Source: Sedimentisphaerales bacterium
GTDB taxonomy: Bacteria > Planctomycetota > Phycisphaerae > Sedimentisphaerales > SM23-30
Assembly (NCBI GenBank): GCA_963666285.1
Contig: OY762711.1
DNA length: 64,000 nucleotides
Reading direction: 5' to 3' (one strand)
This document shows positions 1 to 51,471 of this stretch, piece after piece. The stretch's first letter is position 1. Each line of letters opens with the position of its first letter. Position numbers and translations under genes: made by a program. The notes beneath the pieces are model-generated. The model worked only from the letters and a program-made list of their open reading frames with translations, was not told where the DNA came from and did not search any database.

Positions 1-3000
1 GGGTAAATGTTGGTGCCTGGTTACCAAGACCTACCGCTATGCTGACTGTCAGGTTGTTAGAACCGCCCTTGCTGTCTGTTGCGGTAAACTTGGCACTATA
101 GCTGCCCTGGGTACCGGCATCTGGTATCCAGGCAAAGCTATTACTGCTGCTGTCAAATGCTGCTCCGCTTGGCATACTGTTACATACTACGCTTACGGTA
201 TCACCATCCGGGTCTTTTGTATAGACTGTAAATTTAAGTTTATTGGCTGCTGTTACGCTATATGCTGACGATGAAGTAAATTCCGGGTTGCGGTTTACGT
301 CCTCTACACCTAATGTTACTGTTTTGCTTGCTGAGCCGCCATTGGAATCTGTTACGGTAAAGAGTACCGTCTTGGAGCCGGAATCGCTATAACCTGGCTT
401 CCAGCTGAACAAACCGCTGGTTGAATTCAGACTTGCTCCGGTTGGCAGGTTACTGCTGGAATATGATAAAGTATCTCCATCTTCGTCTGTTGCTGCCAGG
501 GCAAAGCTGTTCTCGGTATTTTCTTTAAAACCTGGCACGGATAATGCACCAAATACCGGGTTGCGGTTTAGATTATTTACATAAATCACTACTTCAAGGC
601 TATCGCTGCCATGGAATCCATCATCGACCTTAAACTCGGCAGTATAAGGACTTGATCCGGATGCATCATAGTCAGGCGTCCAGGAAAATGTCTTGGTGCT
701 TGCATTAAATACTGCTCCAGATGGCTTGCTGGTACATGAATATGTTAATGCATCACCATCAGCATCTGTGGCTGAAATACTAAAGCTTAACGGGCTCATT
801 TCCGTTACTGTTTTAGCTGTAACTCCGGCAAATACCGGTAAATTGTTACCCGCTTCAGAAACAGAAATCACTATTGTTTTTTCTGCCGTTTTTACCGATG
901 TGCTATCATCAGTAGCCGTTACCACTACTGTATAATTATTTGCCTGATCTTTGTTAGGTGTCCAGCTGAAACTGGCAGTACCATTTCCATTATCTACAAA
1001 TGTCGCACCGCTTGGTACTCCCGTAAAACTGAAACTGATATTATCATTATCTGCATCACTGGCAGTAACACTGAAAGATAGCGTTTCCTGGGCAATTACA
1101 GATTTACTCGATGAGGCACTTATTATAGGACTGTCGGCAACAGCCTTAACTGTCACATTCACTGTACCAACTGCGGTTCCGCCATGTCCGTCATTTACTG
1201 TATAGGTAAAGGAATCTGTTCCATTATAGTTTGACGATGGTGTATATGTTACCGTTCCATTACCATTATTAGTAACTGAACCATTGGTACCTTGTGTTAT
1301 ACTGCTTATACTTAAACTGTCTCCTTCAACATCAGTATCATTCCCTGTCAGACTGCCTGTAACAGCAACATCCTCACTTGTAATTAAAGTGTCATTAACT
1401 GCTGTTGGAATGTCATTTATAGGTAATATTAATACACTTACCGATGCTGTATCGCTGCCACCGTTACCATCATTAACCGTATAGGTAAAACTGTCCGTGC
1501 CAATTACGTTTGCCGACGGGGTATAAGTAATTGTTCCATCGCCGTTATTCACTACAGAACCCTTACTGCCCTGGCTGACCGAGCTGATACTCAACGTATC
1601 ACCATCTAAATCACTGTCATTGCTAAGAAGATTGCTGCTTATCAAGACGGTATCTTCATTTGCAACCAGGCTGTCGTTGGCGGCGGCTGGTATATCATTA
1701 ACTGCTGAAATCGTTATGTTTACTGTCGCTGTTGATGTTCCTCCGTTACCGTCGCTGGCAACATAAGTAAAGGTGTCTGAGCCGCTGTAGTTAGCCGATG
1801 GAGTATAAGTTACTACACCGTTACCATTGTTAACTACTGTACCGTGCGTACCCTGGGTTACAGAGGTAATTGTCAAACTGTCGTTATCTTCATCTATATC
1901 ATTGGCTAATAAATTACTTATAACTTTTACTACATCTTCATTTGTAATAACATTATCATTAACTGCCGTTGGAAAAGCATTAACATTTCCGACTGTTACA
2001 TTTGCTGTAATTGTATCTGTGCCGTTATTTGAATCTGTAACGACAAGTTGCAATCCTATCATACCGGCATCATCATAGCCTGGCTTCCAGCTGAATACTC
2101 CGCTGACCGGGTTTAGACTTGCGCCATCCGGTAGATTACTGCATGAATATGTCAATGTGTCACCATCTGCATCTGTTGCTGATACGGTAAAGCTGGTCAA
2201 TGCATTTTCTTTAAATCCCGGTACATTGATAGTTCCAAATTGAGGGTCACGGTTGAGGTTATTAACATTAATTGTTACTTCAATCGAATCAGTACCGTTA
2301 AAACCGTCATTGACTGAAATTACTGCGGTATACGGACTTGCACCCGCTGCACTATAGTCAGGAGTCCAACTGAAAACTTTAGTTGATGTATTAAAGCTTG
2401 CGCCTGCCGGCTTGCTGTCACAACTATATGTCAGGGTATCTCCATCCGCATCTGTTGCTGAAACTGTAAAAATCAGCTGACTCATCTCGGTTACTGTTTT
2501 TGTTCCAATTTCCGCCAAAACCGGTAAATTATTGTCTGCCTGACCAACCGATATCTTTATTGATTTTGTCGCGGTCAGTGCTTGAGCACTATCATCTTTC
2601 GCAGTTACCTGGATAGTATAGTCACCTGCCTGGCCCTTCCCGGAGGTCCAGTCAAATGTAGCTGTTCCATCACCGTTATCCGCAAACTTTGCTCCCGCTG
2701 GCAAAGTAGAAAATGTAAATGAAACACCGTCATTATCCTTATCTGTTGCTGACACACTAAAAGTTAGTCGTTGTGTTGCCACCAGGGCCTGGTTTGCTGC
2801 CGCTGTAATTACCGGTGCATCTGGCTGTGCTGCTATTGTCACATTCACCGTTCCATTGGCAGTTCCGCCGTTTCCATCACTTACGGTATAGGTAAAACTG
2901 TCCAAACCATAATAATCGGCTTCCGGCGTATAGCTCACTGTACCATCGCCATTATTTACTACTGAACCATGCGATCCCTGGGTTACGGCAGAAATACTCA

Positions 3001-6000
3001 AACTATCATTGTCAGAATCTGTATCGTTTGCCAGCAGATTACCACTGGTTACTGCAGAATCCTCATTTGTACTGACTGTATCATTAACTGCAACTGGTAC
3101 ATCATTAGAAGATGATACTGTTACGCTGACTGTTCCAATATCACTGCTGCCGTTTCCATCACTTACGGTATAGGTAAATGTATCTGGACCACTGTAATTT
3201 GCAGACGGTGTATACGTTACTGTTCCATTGCCATTGTTGGTTACTGTTCCATGCGAACCCTGCGTCACAGCTGTTATAGACAAACTGTCATTATCCGCAT
3301 CTGAATCGTTCGATAACAGGTTACCGCTGGTCTTTGCTGTATCTTCATCAACCACAAGAGTGTCATTAGATGCGCTAGGACCATCATTAACTGCCGCAAT
3401 CGTTACAGATACCTGGGCTGAATCAGTCCCACCGTTTCCATCACTTACGGTATAACTAAAACTATCTGAGCCGCTGTAATTTGCTGCCGGGGTGTAAGTT
3501 ACTGTTCCATTCCCATTGTTGGTTACTGTTCCGTGAGCTCCTTGCGTAACTGACTGAACTGTCAGAGTATCGTTATCTGCATCTGTATCATTGGCCACCA
3601 GGCTGCCGCTGGTTTTGGCTGTATCTTCATTAGCCTGAAGAACATCGTTAACCGCTATTGGAACATCATTTACTGCTGAAACAAAGACATTGACTGTTGC
3701 AGTAGCTGTCCCGCCATTACCATCATTAATTAAATAAGTAAATGAATCAGAGCCGGTAAAATTTGCTGCCGGCTGATAAGTAACGGTTCCGTTTCCATTA
3801 TTTGTTACTGTACCATTACTGCCTTGCCCCACCAGGCTGATACTAAGTGTATCACCATCAATATCTGTATCATTGCTCAGCAGGTTGCCGCTGACCTTGG
3901 CATTATCTTCAGTTACTATTATGGTATCATTTGCCGCTGCTGGCAAATCATTCACATTTGTTACCGTCACATTCATGGTAGAAGTGGTGGTACCACCGTT
4001 CCCATCGCTGATAATAAACGAAAATGAGTCCGCGCCGTAGTAGTTCGCTGACGGGGCGTAAGTCGCCGTACCGTCTCCGTTGTTGGTTACTAAACCGTGG
4101 CTGGCCGCCGATACCCCGCTTACTGTAAGCGTATCGCCTTCTATATCCGACGCATTGGCCGTGAGGTCGCCGCTAACCTTGGCACTGTCTTCGCTTACCG
4201 TCATTGATAGCGCCGCGCCTGCCAACGGTGCATCGTTTACTGCTGCAATTGTCACTGCTACCGTTGCTGTAGCTGTCCCGCCCCTACCGTCACTAATATC
4301 ATAAGTGAAGCTGTCAGAACCATTTACATTCGCAGTCGGCGTATAAGTCACCGTCCCGTTCCCGTTATTGACCACTGAACCTTTACTACCCTGCGACACA
4401 CCCGTTATCACCAGTCCGTCACCGTCCGCATCACTGTCGTTAGCCGTCAATACACCGCTAACCGCCGCCGTATCCTCTACTACAGCCAACGTATCACCCA
4501 CCCCCACCGGATTCTGGTTGTTTGCTGCTGCGGTTGTAAATGTATATGCTACATCCTCATACGTTTCGGAATTACCAAATTCATCTATACAGGTAATGCT
4601 ATAACTATATTCTGTACCAGGTGTTAAGTCGGTTAATGTAATAGAGTGGCTTGTTGATGGGTTAACATCACTTGTCACAGTCTTGGTAACTAAACTTCCA
4701 CCTGACTTACTTGTAGCTTTCGGCCAGTAATCTATCACCGAACTCGCCGCTTCATTCGTATTCCACTGTATTGGCTGACTGGTATCACCAGCTGCATTTA
4801 CTTGTAAATCAACCACTTGCGGTGGCGGCGAGTTGTATATTATCCCAATTTCATCTGTAGTCAAAACTTTATTGAATATCTGTAAATTGTCCATATCCCC
4901 ATTATAAAAGTGCCTTGATTCTGTGTAAGCACCAATAATTATAGACTTACTTGTCATGATTTTACCTGAAAATAAAAAATCACTACTCGGAACTATATTT
5001 CCATTAACATACAATCTAGCTTCAACACCATTGTAAACAAAACATACATACGACCATTCATTTAATGGAAGATTTTCAATGCTTATCTTTTCAAAATGTT
5101 CATTATTCTCGTTCATTAGATAGTATGATAGTTTACCATTATCAAAATAAATTCTTAAACTTCCAGCATTTAGTATGTAATTATCTTCAGTACTATCTAT
5201 ATAAAATGGATTAAGCCAAACTGATACAGTACATGAACTAATATTATTCAAATAGTCACATTCTGGGCTCTTAATGCAGTTTTTTCCATCAAATCTAGCA
5301 CTTTGTTGAAAAATACTATCAACATAATTTTCTTCTTCAAACCAACTATATGTGTCATAATAACTGGAATAATTTAAAAGATTCTTATTGAAATTAAGGT
5401 TTAATAACGTTCCTGGAAGAATACTATTATCAATGATAACATTCTTTTTTTCTATTGATTCAAAGCCTTCATCATCTGTTACAGTTAATGTAACTTCATG
5501 CAACCCATCAGAAGCATATGCATGAGTAACAATTTTACCCGTTGCTAAATTTGAATCTCCAAAATTCCAGTTGTAGTTAGTAATATATCCATTGCTATCA
5601 GAAGTCTCAGAGGCATCAAAGACAATATTCTCATTTGCCCTAGTAACATCTGATGAGATATTAAATTTAGCATTTGGCTTCCCTTGCCAGTTGGGATTAT
5701 AATAGCAAATACCAAATACCCCCGATTGCCATAACTGTTTAGATATACTATTATTATCATCTTCAGAAAAACTCACCATATAACTATTAGCAGCCTCATA
5801 AAAATTAGGAAACCGATGATTAACTAAACATAACTGAGGAAAATAACGAGGCAGTAGATCATCTTCACTCGAATATTTTACACCATATAAAACACCTTGA
5901 TTTGCATTCATAAATGCCAAATCCATTGACGGATAATCATATGGAAGACCTGCAATGATAGAAGTGTTAGAATAAATATAAAAACAGTGCCCCATAAGTC

Positions 6001-45320: not shown

Positions 45321-47587
45321 TTAATTTTTATCATACACCCTGACATAATCAATATAATATTTATGAGGAAACAGGCTGTCATCAATACCTTTTTGACCGC
45401 CCCATGCTCCGCCAATCGCAAGGTTTAGTATTAAATAATGCGGCTTATCAAACGGCCATTCATTATCTCCGGTACCTTCATTACGAAAAGTAAAATAATG
45501 CTTATTATCAACGAATGTCTCAATCCTGTCATCATACCACTCAATTGCATATAAATGATACTTATCCATACAGGTTGGAACCTTTATAGTAGCACTCTTC
45601 TGTGTGCCGATTACATGATAATAGCTCTTACAGTGAATTGTGCCAACGATAGTCTCCGGATCATAACCAACATTTTCCATTATATCGATCTCGCCGCATT
45701 TCGGCCACCCAACCTGACCAATATTTTTCCCCAACATCCATATCGCCGGCCAGGTCCCTTTCCCTGTTGGCAGCTTTGCCCTTATCTCAAATCTACCATA
45801 AGTCCATTCTTTCTTCCCTGCAGTATGGATACTCGCTGATGTATATTCAGCATTCTCTTTGTACCCCTCTTTTCGTGCCTCAATCAGCAAACTGCCATTC
45901 TCAACACGTGTATTCTCCAGTCTCTGCCTGGTATAATATTGCTTTTCATTATTTCGGATAAAACCAACCTCATGGTTCCACTTCTCAGCATCAGGCAAGC
46001 CCTGATAGTCAAACTCATCATTCCAGCTCAACTTCCACTCAGGATCCTCCGGTTTATTGTAGCCCTTTTCATCACAATGCAATTTTGAATGCAATCTTAC
46101 TTTATTTACCGTATCCCCGCCATTTTGTAAGTAAAACCGGTTTTCCTTGACTCCGGAATCAATTCTATCTGATTTCGTATTATCTGCGGTAAAAACGGCA
46201 CTTGTTAACGGATGCCATATACCATCGATACTCTTCACCCAGCCATTACCAAAACTTGCATTGCGGATTTGCTTGGCACTTTCGCCATTACGCCTGAAAT
46301 CTTCGACAAACGAATAATACCCTTTTAATGGATCGCCAGCGGTTTTTGTCTGGAATGTAGCAAGATGCTTCCAGCCGCTCGTCTCGCTCAAACAAACAAA
46401 AGCTGAGTAAATTGTTGTGTCATTCTCTACCACAGCTTTGACTATACACCTTACAGTCTGGTTCAGCTCCCAATCAGTATAAAACATAGACTTCGCGCCC
46501 GTGCCTTCATTTCCAAACCTGCTTATTTTTACATCATCTCCGGAAAATATAACTTTAACCCGGTTTTCTTCTTGCACCTTAGCTGGATCATTCTGATCAC
46601 CCGGATCCCACACAGAGAAGATTACTACTTTTTTCCCTCCCCATAACTCCTGGATTCCAAAATAGCCGTGATTAAATCCACAAACGCAAAAGTAACTGCC
46701 TGGAACACTTTTTTCAACTGAAACTTCATTATAAAATGCCATACCTTCCGGAGCGTCATACCACAAATGAACACTGCGGGCTGCTCTAGGAAACTCATTT
46801 CCCTGGGCCAAGACATTTGTTACTATTAAAAAACATATAAACAGGAGAATAAACGTATACTTTTGTCGAGTAGGCATGTCGCCTCCTTTCATTAATTTAA
46901 CAAATTCTGAGTTTCATTATATTTTGTGCAAGGAAACGCATGCCCCTCACAGAACCGGACTTGAAGATTTCCCTCATCCGGCTCTTCATTAATGCTCACT
47001 TTGACGGCTACATAAGGCAAAGTAATGTGCCTTGTAGAAGTCTCCGATAGAAGACGCTGTGGAACGTTCATGGTTTCTTCCAGTTCAGTGCCTGGCCAAT
47101 ATCCTGTTTCGCCTTTACACATTAATGCTGACCCCTTCGAGTGCCTCAAACTTCGAAACTCAACAGGCATTACCCTGTTTACTCCTCTACTATGAGTCAG
47201 TCCGACTACCAAAATGCCATACGGCCGCGTCACGGTTTCAGCTCCTTGGCCGCTTCCTTTCGGAGCACTTCGGTTCTCCCAAGTTCCAATGCAGTCAGTT
47301 CGTTTGCCCGCTACGGACTCAGACCCCGGCTCGTCGATATATGCTCGCCGTATTTCGCATATATCGATATTGGCTTCAGGCATATGAAAACCCTGGCCCG
47401 GATGCGATAAGGAATAATTTCGGGGCTCAACACCTTCACTTGCGTTGTGGCTGACAAACTCCTTTCCCGGGGCTTCGTACAGTTCGTTACCTCTCTGCAC
47501 GCCCGGTGCTGTAATGGGCGGGTGGCTAGCCCTTACCCATGCCGGATTGGCCGGCTTGACTACATTAGCTTCGCTTGGCGCTCTCAT
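45321..47587 (-). CDS. Secreted DUF3472-like plus GH16 glycoside hydrolase, interrupted by a group II intron (exon 1 47587-47584, exon 2 46864-45321; spliced product 515 aa)
   Basis: Splicing gives ATG AAA AAG TAT = MKKYTFILLFICFLIVTNVLAQ (signal peptide); GYFGIQE..IFSVWD; GH16 motifs WPAIWML, GEIDIME, IDYVRVY. Confidence 0.88.
46865..47583 (-). mobile_element. RT-less group II intron, copy 1 (719 nt)
   Basis: 5' GAGCG (variant of GUGYG); domain V GAGCCGGATGAGGGAAATCTTCAAGTCCGGTTC at 46984-46952; domain VI with bulged A at -7 (46871); 3' end ..CTCGAC; no RT/YADD motif; identical by eye to copy 2. Confidence 0.93.
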
Positions 47588-47646
47588 ACTCTTTCCTTAC
47601 CCGGCATAACCAGATGAATTAAAAAATTAAACTTATGGCCAAAATA

Positions 47647-48795
47647 TCATTGTTTTAGCCATTCAAATGAAAATCTGTCAAAAACTATCATCTCATATGG
47701 ATGATCATTTCCTTTCTCAAATAAACAGCCCGCTGTCCCATCAGCCGTCACTGCAAGACACGAATACGCACTGGCTCCGCTATATAGCAATTTTGCGACC
47801 GGCCAGGTCTTACCATCGTCATAACTCAGCCTAACAGTCATGTTAACACGAGAACTCATACTCGCTGGATTAGAAAACAGAAGATAAGGTCGTGATTGTG
47901 AGTTATCATCATCACTCATCCACTTCACAATACTCGCCTGGCAGATTGGCTCAACCAATTCAGAATCATAAAAAGTCTCCGACCAGGTTACTCCGCCATC
48001 GTCACTGCAGCTCACCGCACGGGTCCTATTCTCCCTGAAGTAATTTCTGCTATTCAGCATAATCCTTCCGTCCGACAATTCGACAACCTGACACTCATTT
48101 AACTTATCTGCCCGGGTTGAACCTCCCAGCTTCCAGCTGTTACCATGGTCATCGGAATAACTAACATGAGAATAATACTTCTTGCTACCCTTCTCTATAT
48201 GATCGCAAGGTATCACCAATCTCCCATTAAACCGCCCGCTGCATAGCTGAATCCCGCAACCAGGCCCGGTTGCATACCAGCTCCAGTTTTCCTGCTTTGT
48301 CGAACTGGTTATATCAATAGGCTTTGTCCAGGAAATACCATCATCTGAACTGTGAGACACCCAGACTGTTCTGGTCTCTTTACTGCTGCCATCTATTATC
48401 TGCCTTTCGTGGTCCGAGCCAAGGTTGCGAGTCATAAGCAACCAGATAATACCGGTATCTTCGTCTACCACCACACAAGGATTACCGCAGGTATTTTCAC
48501 CGTCTGACCAGACTATTATCTGATCTGACCATGTTTTACCATTATCTGTACTTCGCTTCAGTAAAATATCGATATTGCCGGCATCCCCTTTGTTTTCCCT
48601 GCCTTCACAAAATGCCAGGATAGTCCCTTTTGTAGTCACTCCCAAAGCCGGAATACGATAGGTATGATAGCCGCCACTGCCACTTTCGTAAACAGTGCAT
48701 ATTTCTCTCTCAAAATTACTTTCAGCCAAAACATGAAAATGACAAACCAAAAGTAATATTATAATTTTCAGTCCAAAATACATGTAATTATTCAT
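47647..48795 (-). CDS. Sialidase family protein (GH33)
   Basis: Signal peptide, YRIP motif, several Asp-boxes (STDNGKTW, SSDDGISW, SDDHGNSW, SDDGGVTW, SYDDGKTW). Confidence 0.92.
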   Translation of the reverse strand: MNNYMYFGLKIIILLLVCHFHVLAESNFEREICTVYESGSGGYHTYRIPALGVTTKGTILAFCEGRENKGDAGNIDILLKRSTDNGKTWSDQIIVWSDGENTCGNPCVVVDEDTGIIWLLMTRNLGSDHERQIIDGSSKETRTVWVSHSSDDGISWTKPIDITSSTKQENWSWYATGPGCGIQLCSGRFNGRLVIPCDHIEKGSKKYYSHVSYSDDHGNSWKLGGSTRADKLNECQVVELSDGRIMLNSRNYFRENRTRAVSCSDDGGVTWSETFYDSELVEPICQASIVKWMSDDDNSQSRPYLLFSNPASMSSRVNMTVRLSYDDGKTWPVAKLLYSGASAYSCLAVTADGTAGCLFEKGNDHPYEMIVFDRFSFEWLKQ

Positions 48796-48821
48796 ATCTA
48801 CACCTCGATAAGCTGACAGGC

Positions 48822-50542
48822 TTACTGTCTCGTATTGTTCACCTTGACTGCTTCAATTGTCATATCTTTCCATTCGGATTCAATACCGCGTAAATGATGA
48901 TCGAAAAACTGCTTTGTATATTTAATTGTCTCCGGTCCAAATCCTTGACCGTGCCCTCCGTCTTTTACGGTAATCATTGTACAGTTTATTTTTGCTTTTC
49001 TCAAAGCAGTAATAAATAATTCAGATTGATTATACGGCACCAGCGGATCTTTGGTACCATGAATTATTAAAAATGGAGGATCATCTTTAGTAATATACCG
49101 AATTGGATTCGCAGTAGCAACCTTATCCTTATTCTCTTGTATGGCTCCTCCGATAAGTTCTGATTCCGGCGAATCTGGTGCATCGTGGCTCTGGATCGAA
49201 CCTGCTTTATCCATCTGCAAAAAATCGGTCGGGCCAAAGAAATCTGCAACACATGAAACATGACTCGAAACGTCTTTATATTCTCCTAGTCCCCCATCCA
49301 TAACCGCCGCTCCACTGCTCGTACCCAGCATTGATACCAGGTGGCCGCCGGCTGATGATCCCCATACCCCTATCCTATCGCTATCTAATCCGTATTTATT
49401 TGCATTTGCCCTTATCCAGCGAATGGCAGCTTTACAGTCATGAATTTGTGCCGGCCAAACGGCATCTCCACTTAACCTGTAATTTACTGTCGCCGCGGCA
49501 TAATCTCCTGAAGCAACAAACGGTATCAGCTTTCCGACACTACTGGATTTATCTCCCGCTCTAAATGCTCCGCCATGAACATACACAATTACAGGCAAAG
49601 ACTTTTCTCCTGAATTCTTTGGAATCAGCAAATCTAAACACTGTCTTTCATGACTGTTTTTTAGATAAGGTAAGTCTTTTATGTGTAGAACATTATCGCG
49701 GTTCATCTTATACTGCATACCTCTTTCCGGCCTTTCCCTGTTTTGTTCCTGCTGGCCGAATAGCTGAGCTGCTCCCAAAAATATAACCAGAATCACGATT
49801 ATCTGTCTATTAATATCTTGTCGAGTAGGCATGTCGCCTCCTTTCATTAATTTAACAAATTCTGAGTTTCATTATATTTTGTGCAAGGAAACGCATGCCC
49901 CTCACAGAACCGGACTTGAAGATTTCCCTCATCCGGCTCTTCATTAATGCTCACTTTGACGGCTACATAAGGCAAAGTAATGTGCCTTGTAGAAGTCTCC
50001 GATAGAAGACGCTGTGGAACGTTCATGGTTTCTTCCAGTTCAGTGCCTGGCCAATATCCTGTTTCGCCTTTACACATTAATGCTGACCCCTTCGAGTGCC
50101 TCAAACTTCGAAACTCAACAGGCATTACCCTGTTTACTCCTCTACTATGAGTCAGTCCGACTACCAAAATGCCATACGGCCGCGTCACGGTTTCAGCTCC
50201 TTGGCCGCTTCCTTTCGGAGCACTTCGGTTCTCCCAAGTTCCAATGCAGTCAGTTCGTTTGCCCGCTACGGACTCAGACCCCGGCTCGTCGATATATGCT
50301 CGCCGTATTTCGCATATATCGATATTGGCTTCAGGCATATGAAAACCCTGGCCCGGATGCGATAAGGAATAATTTCGGGGCTCAACACCTTCACTTGCGT
50401 TGTGGCTGACAAACTCCTTTCCCGGGGCTTCGTACAGTTCGTTACCTCTCTGCACGCCCGGTGCTGTAATGGGCGGGTGGCTAGCCCTTACCCATGCCGG
50501 ATTGGCCGGCTTGACTACATTAGCTTCGCTTGGCGCTCTCAT
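48822..50542 (-). CDS. Secreted alpha/beta-hydrolase (BD-FAE-like esterase), interrupted by a group II intron (exon 1 50542-50539, exon 2 49819-48822; spliced product 333 aa)
   Basis: Splicing gives ATG AAA GAT ATT = MKDINRQIIVILVIFLGAAQLFG; HGGAF, GSSAGGHL, HGTKDPLVP, GGHG. Confidence 0.88.
49820..50538 (-). mobile_element. RT-less group II intron, copy 2 (719 nt)
   Basis: Same sequence as 46865-47583 (offset 2955); flanks diverge outside TATGA|AA. Confidence 0.93.
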
Positions 50543-50568
50543 AAAAACTCCCTTCATTATTCTATCGA

Positions 50569-51471
50569 TCAATCAAATTTTAAACCTGTATCTTGCCGTT
50601 TTAGTGTAATATCTCGTAAATAATGATCAAAAAATTGCCAAACCTTATCTGTCACCTCTTCTCCAAATCCTTCACCATGCCCACCACCTTCAATAGTAAC
50701 CATTATACATTCATTATTCTTATCTCGCAATGCCTTAGAAAGCAGCTCAGATTGAATATATGGTACAATGGAATCGCCGGTTCCGTGAACGATCAGAAAT
50801 GGCGGCTCATCACCATTAATATATGTCATGGGATTCGCTCCCGCAATTTTACCAACATTATCTTCGATCGGTCCGCCAAACAGCTCAACTGCTGGTGATT
50901 CATCAATTTCATACTCTACGTCAGTACCAAACTTATCCATATGAAAGAAATCTGTTGGCCCATAGAAATCAACTACACAAGATACCTTACTGGAAACATC
51001 TAAACAACATTCAGGCTCACCCTCCAACGATCTCACCCCGTTACTCGTACCTAGCATAACGGCAAGATGACCGCCTGCCGAACACCCCCATACTCCTATT
51101 CGGCTGCTGTCAATTCCATATTTCTCGGCATTGTTTCGGATCCAGCGTAACGCAGCTTTACAATCATGGATCTGTGCCGGCCATATCGCATCACTGCTAT
51201 ACCGGTAGTTAATTGACACTGCCGCATATTGGCCTGACTCCACAAATGGAACAACGATAGGCAAACCAGTAGCTTTATCACCGGTTCGATATGCTCCCCC
51301 ATGTATATATACAATAACAGGAAGCAGATCTTGTTCACGGCTTTCAGGGATCAGCAGATCCAGATTCTGCCTGCAATGACCGTTGTCAACATAGGCAATG
51401 TCCTGTAAATGCCTGACCCCGGTTTTATTAATATCATGCATGTTCTTTCTATTTATCATATACCAATTCAA
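50569..51471 (-). CDS. Alpha/beta-hydrolase (BD-FAE-like esterase), paralog of the downstream gene; start probably the ATG at 51441
   Basis: HGGAY, WPAQIHDCKAA, GCSAGGHL, HGTGDSIVP, GGHG. Confidence 0.88.
   Translation of the reverse strand: MNWYMINRKNMHDINKTGVRHLQDIAYVDNGHCRQNLDLLIPESREQDLLPVIVYIHGGAYRTGDKATGLPIVVPFVESGQYAAVSINYRYSSDAIWPAQIHDCKAALRWIRNNAEKYGIDSSRIGVWGCSAGGHLAVMLGTSNGVRSLEGEPECCLDVSSKVSCVVDFYGPTDFFHMDKFGTDVEYEIDESPAVELFGGPIEDNVGKIAGANPMTYINGDEPPFLIVHGTGDSIVPYIQSELLSKALRDKNNECIMVTIEGGGHGEGFGEEVTDKVWQFFDHYLRDITLKRQDTGLKFD

Follow-up and report, generated by a model that had tools for sequence, protein, structure and literature searches.

Selection against stop codons in one reading frame through the ribozyme of a group II intron family that inserts at start codons

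Passage of ribosomes over a group II ribozyme is normally regarded as harmful to its folding and is kept out (PMC3073962, in its accessible text). The window, by which we mean the whole stretch of 64,000 nucleotides of Sedimentisphaerales bacterium contig OY762711.1 that was analysed, carries two identical group II introns, each inserted at a host start codon from which a reading frame stays open through nearly the whole ribozyme. A sequence-only reading of the locus proposed that ribosomes loaded at the native ribosome binding site could cross the unspliced intron, melt domain VI and reinitiate on the host gene. The question is whether such a frame is an accident of one element or a trait kept by selection. 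The introns and their parts are as follows.

46865..47583, minus strand: group II intron copy 1, ORF-less, 719 nt, 5' GAGCG and 3' CGAC; borders set from eight copies
49820..50538, minus strand: group II intron copy 2, identical to copy 1, behind ATGA (50542-50539) of a BD-FAE esterase gene
46949..46987, minus strand: domain V with a 5-nt terminal loop (Rfam and fold)
46868..46948, minus strand: domain VI with a bulged branch A; fold z = -6.1; its 5' arm (46936-46930) pairs with the Shine-Dalgarno (SD)
47382..47389, minus strand: EBS1 loop TCATAT, complementary to the end of exon 1 (..ATGA); co-varies with the target among 56 representatives
47408..47414, minus strand: EBS2-like TTCCTTA, matching the host SD; putative pairing, from complementarity

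The intron scored 116 bits against RF02005 (group-II-D1D4-6) and 55.5 bits against RF00029 in Rfam; the labels IC1, EBS2 and DIV come from the Rfam alignment plus general knowledge. Its 5' GAGCG is a variant of a GUGYG-like end and its 3' AC fits AY. Eight near-identical 719-nt copies were found in the genome, two of them inside the window, each directly behind ATGA and most preceded by an SD-like purine run. Pairing of EBS1 reached 5-6 of 6 bases in 51/56 representatives (best window, G-U allowed). By its sequence features, the window element is a mobile ORF-less group II intron that targets an SD and start codon and is predicted to self-splice. A scan of viral_contigs for the intron gave 0 matches, and the intron-free joint was absent from three contig runs, data of a kind that is uninformative on splicing.

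The exons around the two copies are:

47584..47599, minus strand: exon 1, SD-like AAGGA, then ATG plus one base (ATGA), with IBS2 and IBS1; ATGA precedes 8/8 copies
45321..46864, minus strand: exon 2 of copy 1, DUF3472 plus GH16 glycoside hydrolase; spliced ORF 515 aa, starting MKKYTF
48822..49819, minus strand: exon 2 of copy 2, BD-FAE esterase; spliced ORF 333 aa

In-silico removal of the intron restored ORFs of 86-515 aa at seven of the eight genome copies; the remaining site has no gene and its spliced ORF is 5 codons long. Homologs of the GH16 gene without the intron start at the same place as the spliced ORF. Both copies lie in one glycan-use gene run (45321-51471, minus strand) with two BD-FAE esterases, a BNR/sialidase-like gene and the DUF3472-GH16 gene, and in relatives the DUF3472 and GH16 parts match separately. 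Two genome copies (G000:C1:5266367-5267085 and 1613560-1614207) sit within short low-complexity repeats of the GATGAAG and TTATGAA types, which mimic SD plus ATGA and are not gene starts.

The same genome, which encodes Rho and has the 16S anti-SD, also holds two RT-bearing relatives, one with YADD intact (L011, G000:C1:910721-912649) and one with YADN (L010, 5395339-5397267), together with L009, an ORF-less copy that has decayed, and a 3' remnant. None of these is at a gene start, and their host frame stops early. EBS1 and EBS2 are changed in L011 and L010, and L011 stands behind a transposase-like ORF that we take to be IS110-like. A partial RT-like match to the intron RT (37%) was seen at G000:C1:3875451-3876053.

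The open frames are:

46892..47587, minus strand: stop-free frame from the host AUG, 231 codons; its TAA (46894-46892) overlaps ATG 46892
49847..50542, minus strand: stop-free frame of copy 2, 231 codons, identical to copy 1

The frame on the minus strand was as first described, running from the host ATG to a TAA that overlaps an ATG (46892) in frame with exon 2, and copy 2 (ATG 50542, intron 50538..49820) is the same. No Pfam or NCBIfam family matched the peptide, in which the sequence-only reading had seen no RT or maturase motif. All eight genome copies keep the 231 codons open, while the other two intron frames have 14 and 20 stops. The frame had been placed in domains I-V; it is open through V, but it also covers most of VI and ends in the 3' arm of VI just before the SD. 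The chance of such openness had been put at about 1e-5, and the arithmetic is right (1.0e-5 under a first-order Markov model), but the null is wrong because codons ~62-231 belong to a frame that is poor in stops across the family. Taken alone, the 58 host-specific codons at the 5' end would be open with P ~0.05, and their divergence from seven outside relatives predicts no more than 0.2-0.9 stops. By itself, then, the full-length join of host frame and family frame is weak evidence. The 231-aa peptide has 254 database look-alikes, protein-database matches being biased toward open frames; when residues 1-62 were searched against 3 candidates of 127-405 aa, matches were confined to P0001 and P0002.

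Homologs were gathered with structural DNA motifs or blastn and without regard to ORFs, from 19 metagenome loci, 80 of 84 genome loci and the best hits from 61, 401 and 401 genomes. The 188 loci yielded 118 with the whole 5' part, 99 distinct sites and 59 representatives at 95%. Insertion is at ATG in 77 and at GTG in 2 of the 99 distinct sites, in target genes of many types. In-frame stops in close homologs at start codons were what the sequence-only reading itself would have taken as refutation, and its literal claim falls on them: the host frame stops by codon 77 in 37/39 ATG-site representatives, with only L092 (167 codons) and the window element (231) passing DIII, and each of the six metagenome homologs of full length has 12-21 stops in the frame of the host AUG. 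The UAAUG overlap occurs in 0/19 metagenome relatives. We therefore rejected both the host-AUG frame as a family rule and the overlap as a conserved signal. Independent host-to-end open frames were seen in P0002 (71% identical, 230 aa), in L092 (167 codons to the RT) and in P0053.

What recurs across the family is frame A, defined as the frame that reads GTWE over the DI/DII junction. It is stop-free from IC1 to DIII in 36/59 representatives, against 2 and 0 for the other frames. We compared 24 disjoint pairs from the main clade (49 representatives, 75% mean identity). Between IC1 and DIII, stop-creating differences in frame A numbered 9 against 39.7 expected, whereas control frames B and C gave 60 against 62.5 and 74 against 67.4 in the same pairs. 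Real stops in frame A had the lowest ratio among 216 sets of pseudo-stops by frame. With the introns of the window's own genome left out, the counts were 9 against 41.9 (column permutation P 5e-5, bootstrap ratio 0.08-0.38). Among members at non-ATG sites the depletion was partial (9 against 18.8). The pairwise test found no stop depletion in the 5' segment, nor in a sister clade of 10 members (13 against 13.9), which was separated on the tree only after its many stops had been seen. A column-independent shuffle gave a weak result (21 against 32.2) because column frequencies already carry the selection. The 3' half in ORF-less members had 0 against 2.3 in 4 disjoint pairs, not significant alone. 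These depletion tests are pairwise only, without polarity of changes, and control partly for relatedness and RNA pairing.

Differences in frame A are spread flatly over codon positions (296/351/315), and pN/pS in the family frame is 0.94. Net length changes are a multiple of 3 in only 10/22 non-modal members, and compensated frameshifts occur in L052 and in the predicted proteins P0036 and P0046-P0048. AlphaFold gave the 231-aa peptide a pLDDT of 41.8 and a pTM of 0.13 (39 rows). The flat codon positions, the pN/pS, the compensated frameshifts and the pLDDT together indicate that openness is conserved and not the peptide. The core idea, of a frame that stays open among diverged homologs while its amino acids drift, was thus upheld for frame A (9 against 39.7, pN/pS 0.94). 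At the level of sequence evolution, these comparisons show that one frame across the ribozyme is under selection to avoid stops but not to keep amino acids. Selection for translation of that frame is likely.

The places where the frames begin and end bear on what translation might be for. Two features of the window intron are needed here.

47478..47497, minus strand: IC1 stem, the place of the family's stop-SD-AUG cassette; stop and AUG are both gone, and the AUG position is GTA
46875..46894, minus strand: restart cassette, with stop 46894-46892, SD AAAGGAGG 46889-46882 and ATG 46877-46875

In the family, IC1 usually reads stop-GGAGG-N9-AUG, an SD and AUG that are also structural, GGAGGT being common in the sister clade. 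The host-frame stop falls -20 to +1 nt from the IC1 codon in 23/31 ATG-site members (15 at -14), beyond it in 4 and early in 4, two of these being L009 and L010; kin in these counts are not independent. At non-ATG sites the host frame ends early in 10/18. The first leg, from host AUG to IC1, has no pairwise stop depletion (3 against 2.6, at low power). A net +1 length change before EBS1 links the host frame to frame A in the window intron, making one leg and not two, and the EBS2-like TTCCTTA sits in the stretch whose length changed. A separate fusion was observed in L092, from a Planctomycetota MAG: this RT-type intron at ATGA has a host frame that overlaps the RT start, its legs having been fused independently via a +1 insertion in IC1.

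At its other end, frame A stops -23 to +14 nt from the RT start motif in 34/36 members, and in 34/36 its register differs from that of the RT. In the ORF-less subfamily of the window intron, it continues over the remnant of DIV and through DV and DVI, and in 8/10 distinct lineages its stop lies 13-14 nt ahead of an SD-led domain VI AUG, the exceptions being L009, which is broken, and L042, which runs past the AUG. Stops lie inside a DII insertion in L042, L043 and L051. In eight other ORF-less lineages frame A ends 49-302 nt short of the domain VI AUG, and no leg linking the RT stop with domain VI recurs consistently in the close family.

Restart had been placed at the ATG of the UAAUG overlap (46892). 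A base-paired SD-AUG does stand beside the frame end, but the restart codon is most likely 46877, the second ATG in frame with exon 2, which has the Shine-Dalgarno and is the conserved one; a start there gives MPTRQ in place of MK. The domain VI SD and AUG are fully paired (unpaired probability 0.00). The codon is AUG in 23/23 scored ATG-site members and ACG in 5/8 others. Members off start codons in which ACG was seen are L064, L119, L130, L135, L062 and L186.

A frame that is kept open without amino-acid conservation and ends by a paired SD-AUG supports crossing of the ribozyme and restart. To that extent sequence evolution favours the sequence-only reading, but entry is normally in two legs via IC1 and not straight through from the host AUG. 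We judge it probable that this class E/F-like, SD- and AUG-targeting intron carries a translation relay over its unspliced ribozyme, with the legs fused in the window lineage. Weighing against it are the sister clade, undepleted though at ATG sites, the partial depletion at non-ATG sites, the null result for the first leg, the ORF-less lineages that end far from the domain VI AUG, the stops in the DII insertion, L042 running past the AUG, the lack of a consistent leg after the RT, the net length changes, the structural role of the IC1 SD and AUG, and the copy at a site without a gene. In typical relatives, ribosomes that started on the host AUG would reach the IC1 stop-SD-AUG cassette after some 30 codons, stop and restart there, cross DI-DIII and stop at the maturase start in RT-bearing members or at the domain VI SD in the ORF-less subfamily. 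Unwinding of the IC1, DIV and DVI stems would expose each start and allow coupled restart on the maturase or the host gene. In the window lineage the IC1 AUG would have disappeared, leaving legs 1 and 2 as a single frame of 231 codons. Such a relay would keep the interrupted host gene expressed and its leader covered by ribosomes and protected from Rho when splicing is slow; translation should in turn compete with ribozyme folding and splicing. The only intact maturase is at another locus (L011), and mobilisation would be in trans by the L011 RT. In bacterial translational coupling by leader ORFs, an upstream ORF ends at a sequestered start, as is reportedly the case for orf121-tnpA of IS91. 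The relay would work alike, but the leader ORF would be the catalytic RNA itself.

We read eight distant RT relatives at their 5' part. Six are RF02005 introns not at start codons and have many stops in all frames, and the Caedibacter intron among the eight is damaged. The intron of Ca. Megaera polyxenophila, whose RT is 47.7% identical, sits six bases behind an SD and TTG, GTG, CTG or ATG in four copies:

L192, L198, L199 and L200, on plasmids CP113872, CP113869 and CP113871: Megaera intron copies, with ORFs annotated as hypothetical proteins

Its frame is open for 165 codons, with 0 stops against 20 and 11 in the other frames and in a different local register, and ends TAA TAA ATG at the RT start. 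As a third leg, an ORF of 37 codons that overlaps the RT stop runs on over DV and terminates 20 nt ahead of an SD-led domain VI AUG that is in frame with exon 2. Read from its sequence, the Megaera intron shows the full relay in unrelated amino acids, as one post hoc case. More broadly, there may be a widespread bacterial group II lineage with chained sequence-free ORFs, in which the host ribosome binding site would be hijacked for the maturase, the unspliced intron would be harmless and translation or splicing would be switched; the window would hold its one-leg version and Megaera the same design in other codons. We put this forward tentatively, with slightly more doubt than belief.

The translated frame need not hand ribosomes over. 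They might instead shield the leader from Rho or nucleases or tune splicing, and most exon 2 protein would then be made on spliced mRNA or by ribosomes that initiate independently in domain VI. Stop depletion is explained equally well by such cover, the genome has Rho, and the several ORF-less lineages whose frame ends far from the domain VI AUG fit it too. It also suits the sister clade, which has ATG sites, and a paired domain VI SD and AUG without any open frame. Cover does not, however, need the clustering of stops that is seen at the RT start and, in both IC1 and domain VI, 14 nt ahead of an SD-led AUG, and the domain VI SD and AUG stay fully paired unless they are unwound. We consider cover without hand-over unlikely, and lean toward hand-over as the purpose of the translated frame. 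Sister-clade members at ATG sites with a strong domain VI SD and no open frame are L070, L077, L079, L084 and L088, all from Campylobacterota, and also L069 and L094; Sulfurimonas and Facilibium have several copies each.

Alternatively, the lack of stops in one frame might be a by-product of ribozyme structure and of common ancestry, with the full-length frame of the window a chance join. The 5' 58 codons are easily open by chance, only 2/39 ATG-site representatives read past DIII from the host AUG, kin are not independent, and the IC1 AUG may be structural. Yet the null is calibrated by the sister clade, the 5' segment and both control frames, the true stops rank 1/216, and the Megaera intron keeps open a local frame that is unrelated, whereas the six distant introns away from start codons have many stops in all frames. 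We regard this explanation as improbable.

That the 231-aa product, or one of 131 or 195 aa, is a functional protein is scarcely credible in spite of the 254 look-alikes: pN/pS, the flat codon positions, the compensated frameshifts, the AlphaFold scores and the lack of a Pfam or NCBIfam family all speak against it, and we rejected a functional peptide for want of purifying amino-acid selection (pN/pS 0.94) and of a fold (pLDDT 41.8). A relic of an exon-fused maturase pre-protein, in the style of organellar intron ORFs translated in fusion with the 5' exon (PMC3073962, accessible text), is equally far-fetched and largely refuted already, since frame A is out of RT register in 34/36 and ends where the RT begins, ORF-less members remain under the selection, and the window element has no RT.

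Among known introns, the features suggest a lineage like class E/F (IIE/IIF); the closest named RT is that of Caedibacter plasmid pKAP298 (64.7%, tblastn). IIE/IIF introns have a 5-nt DV loop and a size of ~720 nt (PMC3753933, accessible text), and the window family resembles them in its RF02005 and RF00029 matches, 5-nt DV loop, short IIB-like core and 719-nt length, and in the 443-aa, En-less RT of its relatives. Unlike known IIE/IIF introns, it targets SD plus AUG and has SD-AUG cassettes and a stop-free frame. The IIB1 start/stop lineage of Avi.groEL and EcKTE56.groEL also inserts in or beside initiation codons, as the window family does, and its clade has a subdomain Ia of 300-700 nt at the base of domain I and housekeeping-gene targets; the available portion of PMC12584367, which is the source for this lineage, raises as speculation a control of splicing by ribosomes close to the 5' end and does not describe a translated ribozyme frame. 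The window intron differs in that it has ~295 nt from the 5' end to the end of DI and lacks subdomain Ia, for which we rejected membership, and its family hits many gene types.

In organellar group II introns with exon-fused maturases, ribosomes enter the ribozyme from the upstream exon, whereas bacterial intron-encoded proteins have their own RBS, separate from the host gene (PMC3073962, accessible text). Unlike the organellar fusions, the frame of the window family stops at the RT start or in domain VI, and the RT is not fused. C.te.I1 of Clostridium tetani is, like the window intron, ORF-less and bacterial with annotated start codons inside D5/6, its unspliced RNA being a coding form; it differs in being class B, in its alternative splicing and in a 5' end beside a stop codon, and the accessible part of PMC3919590 reports no open frame through its ribozyme. 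We found no literature description of a selected stop-free ribozyme frame; subscription papers, including Michel 2007 and Simon 2008, and supplements were outside the scope and could bear on novelty. The accessible text of PMC4424553, PMC4028801, PMC8919778, PMC3552965 and 10.64898/2026.10.21.760802 contains nothing on such a frame.

If the relay is real, the ribozyme, kept free of stops by selection although it encodes no selected peptide, would count as a dual-use RNA, and low-cost settlement of introns on the start codons of many genes would be explained. It would offer a direct system for competition between ribosomes and splicing in bacteria, and a non-polar intron targeting SD plus AUG could serve as a gene-tagging tool. 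It would also be a warning that hundreds of 'hypothetical proteins' (the 254 matches) are intron RNA.

Two further observations concern single loci. The ORF-less member L058 has its 5' part replaced by foreign sequence, possibly an insertion element. Positions 271-4399 of the window hold tandem coding repeats of ~282 nt, likely part of a repeat-domain surface protein.
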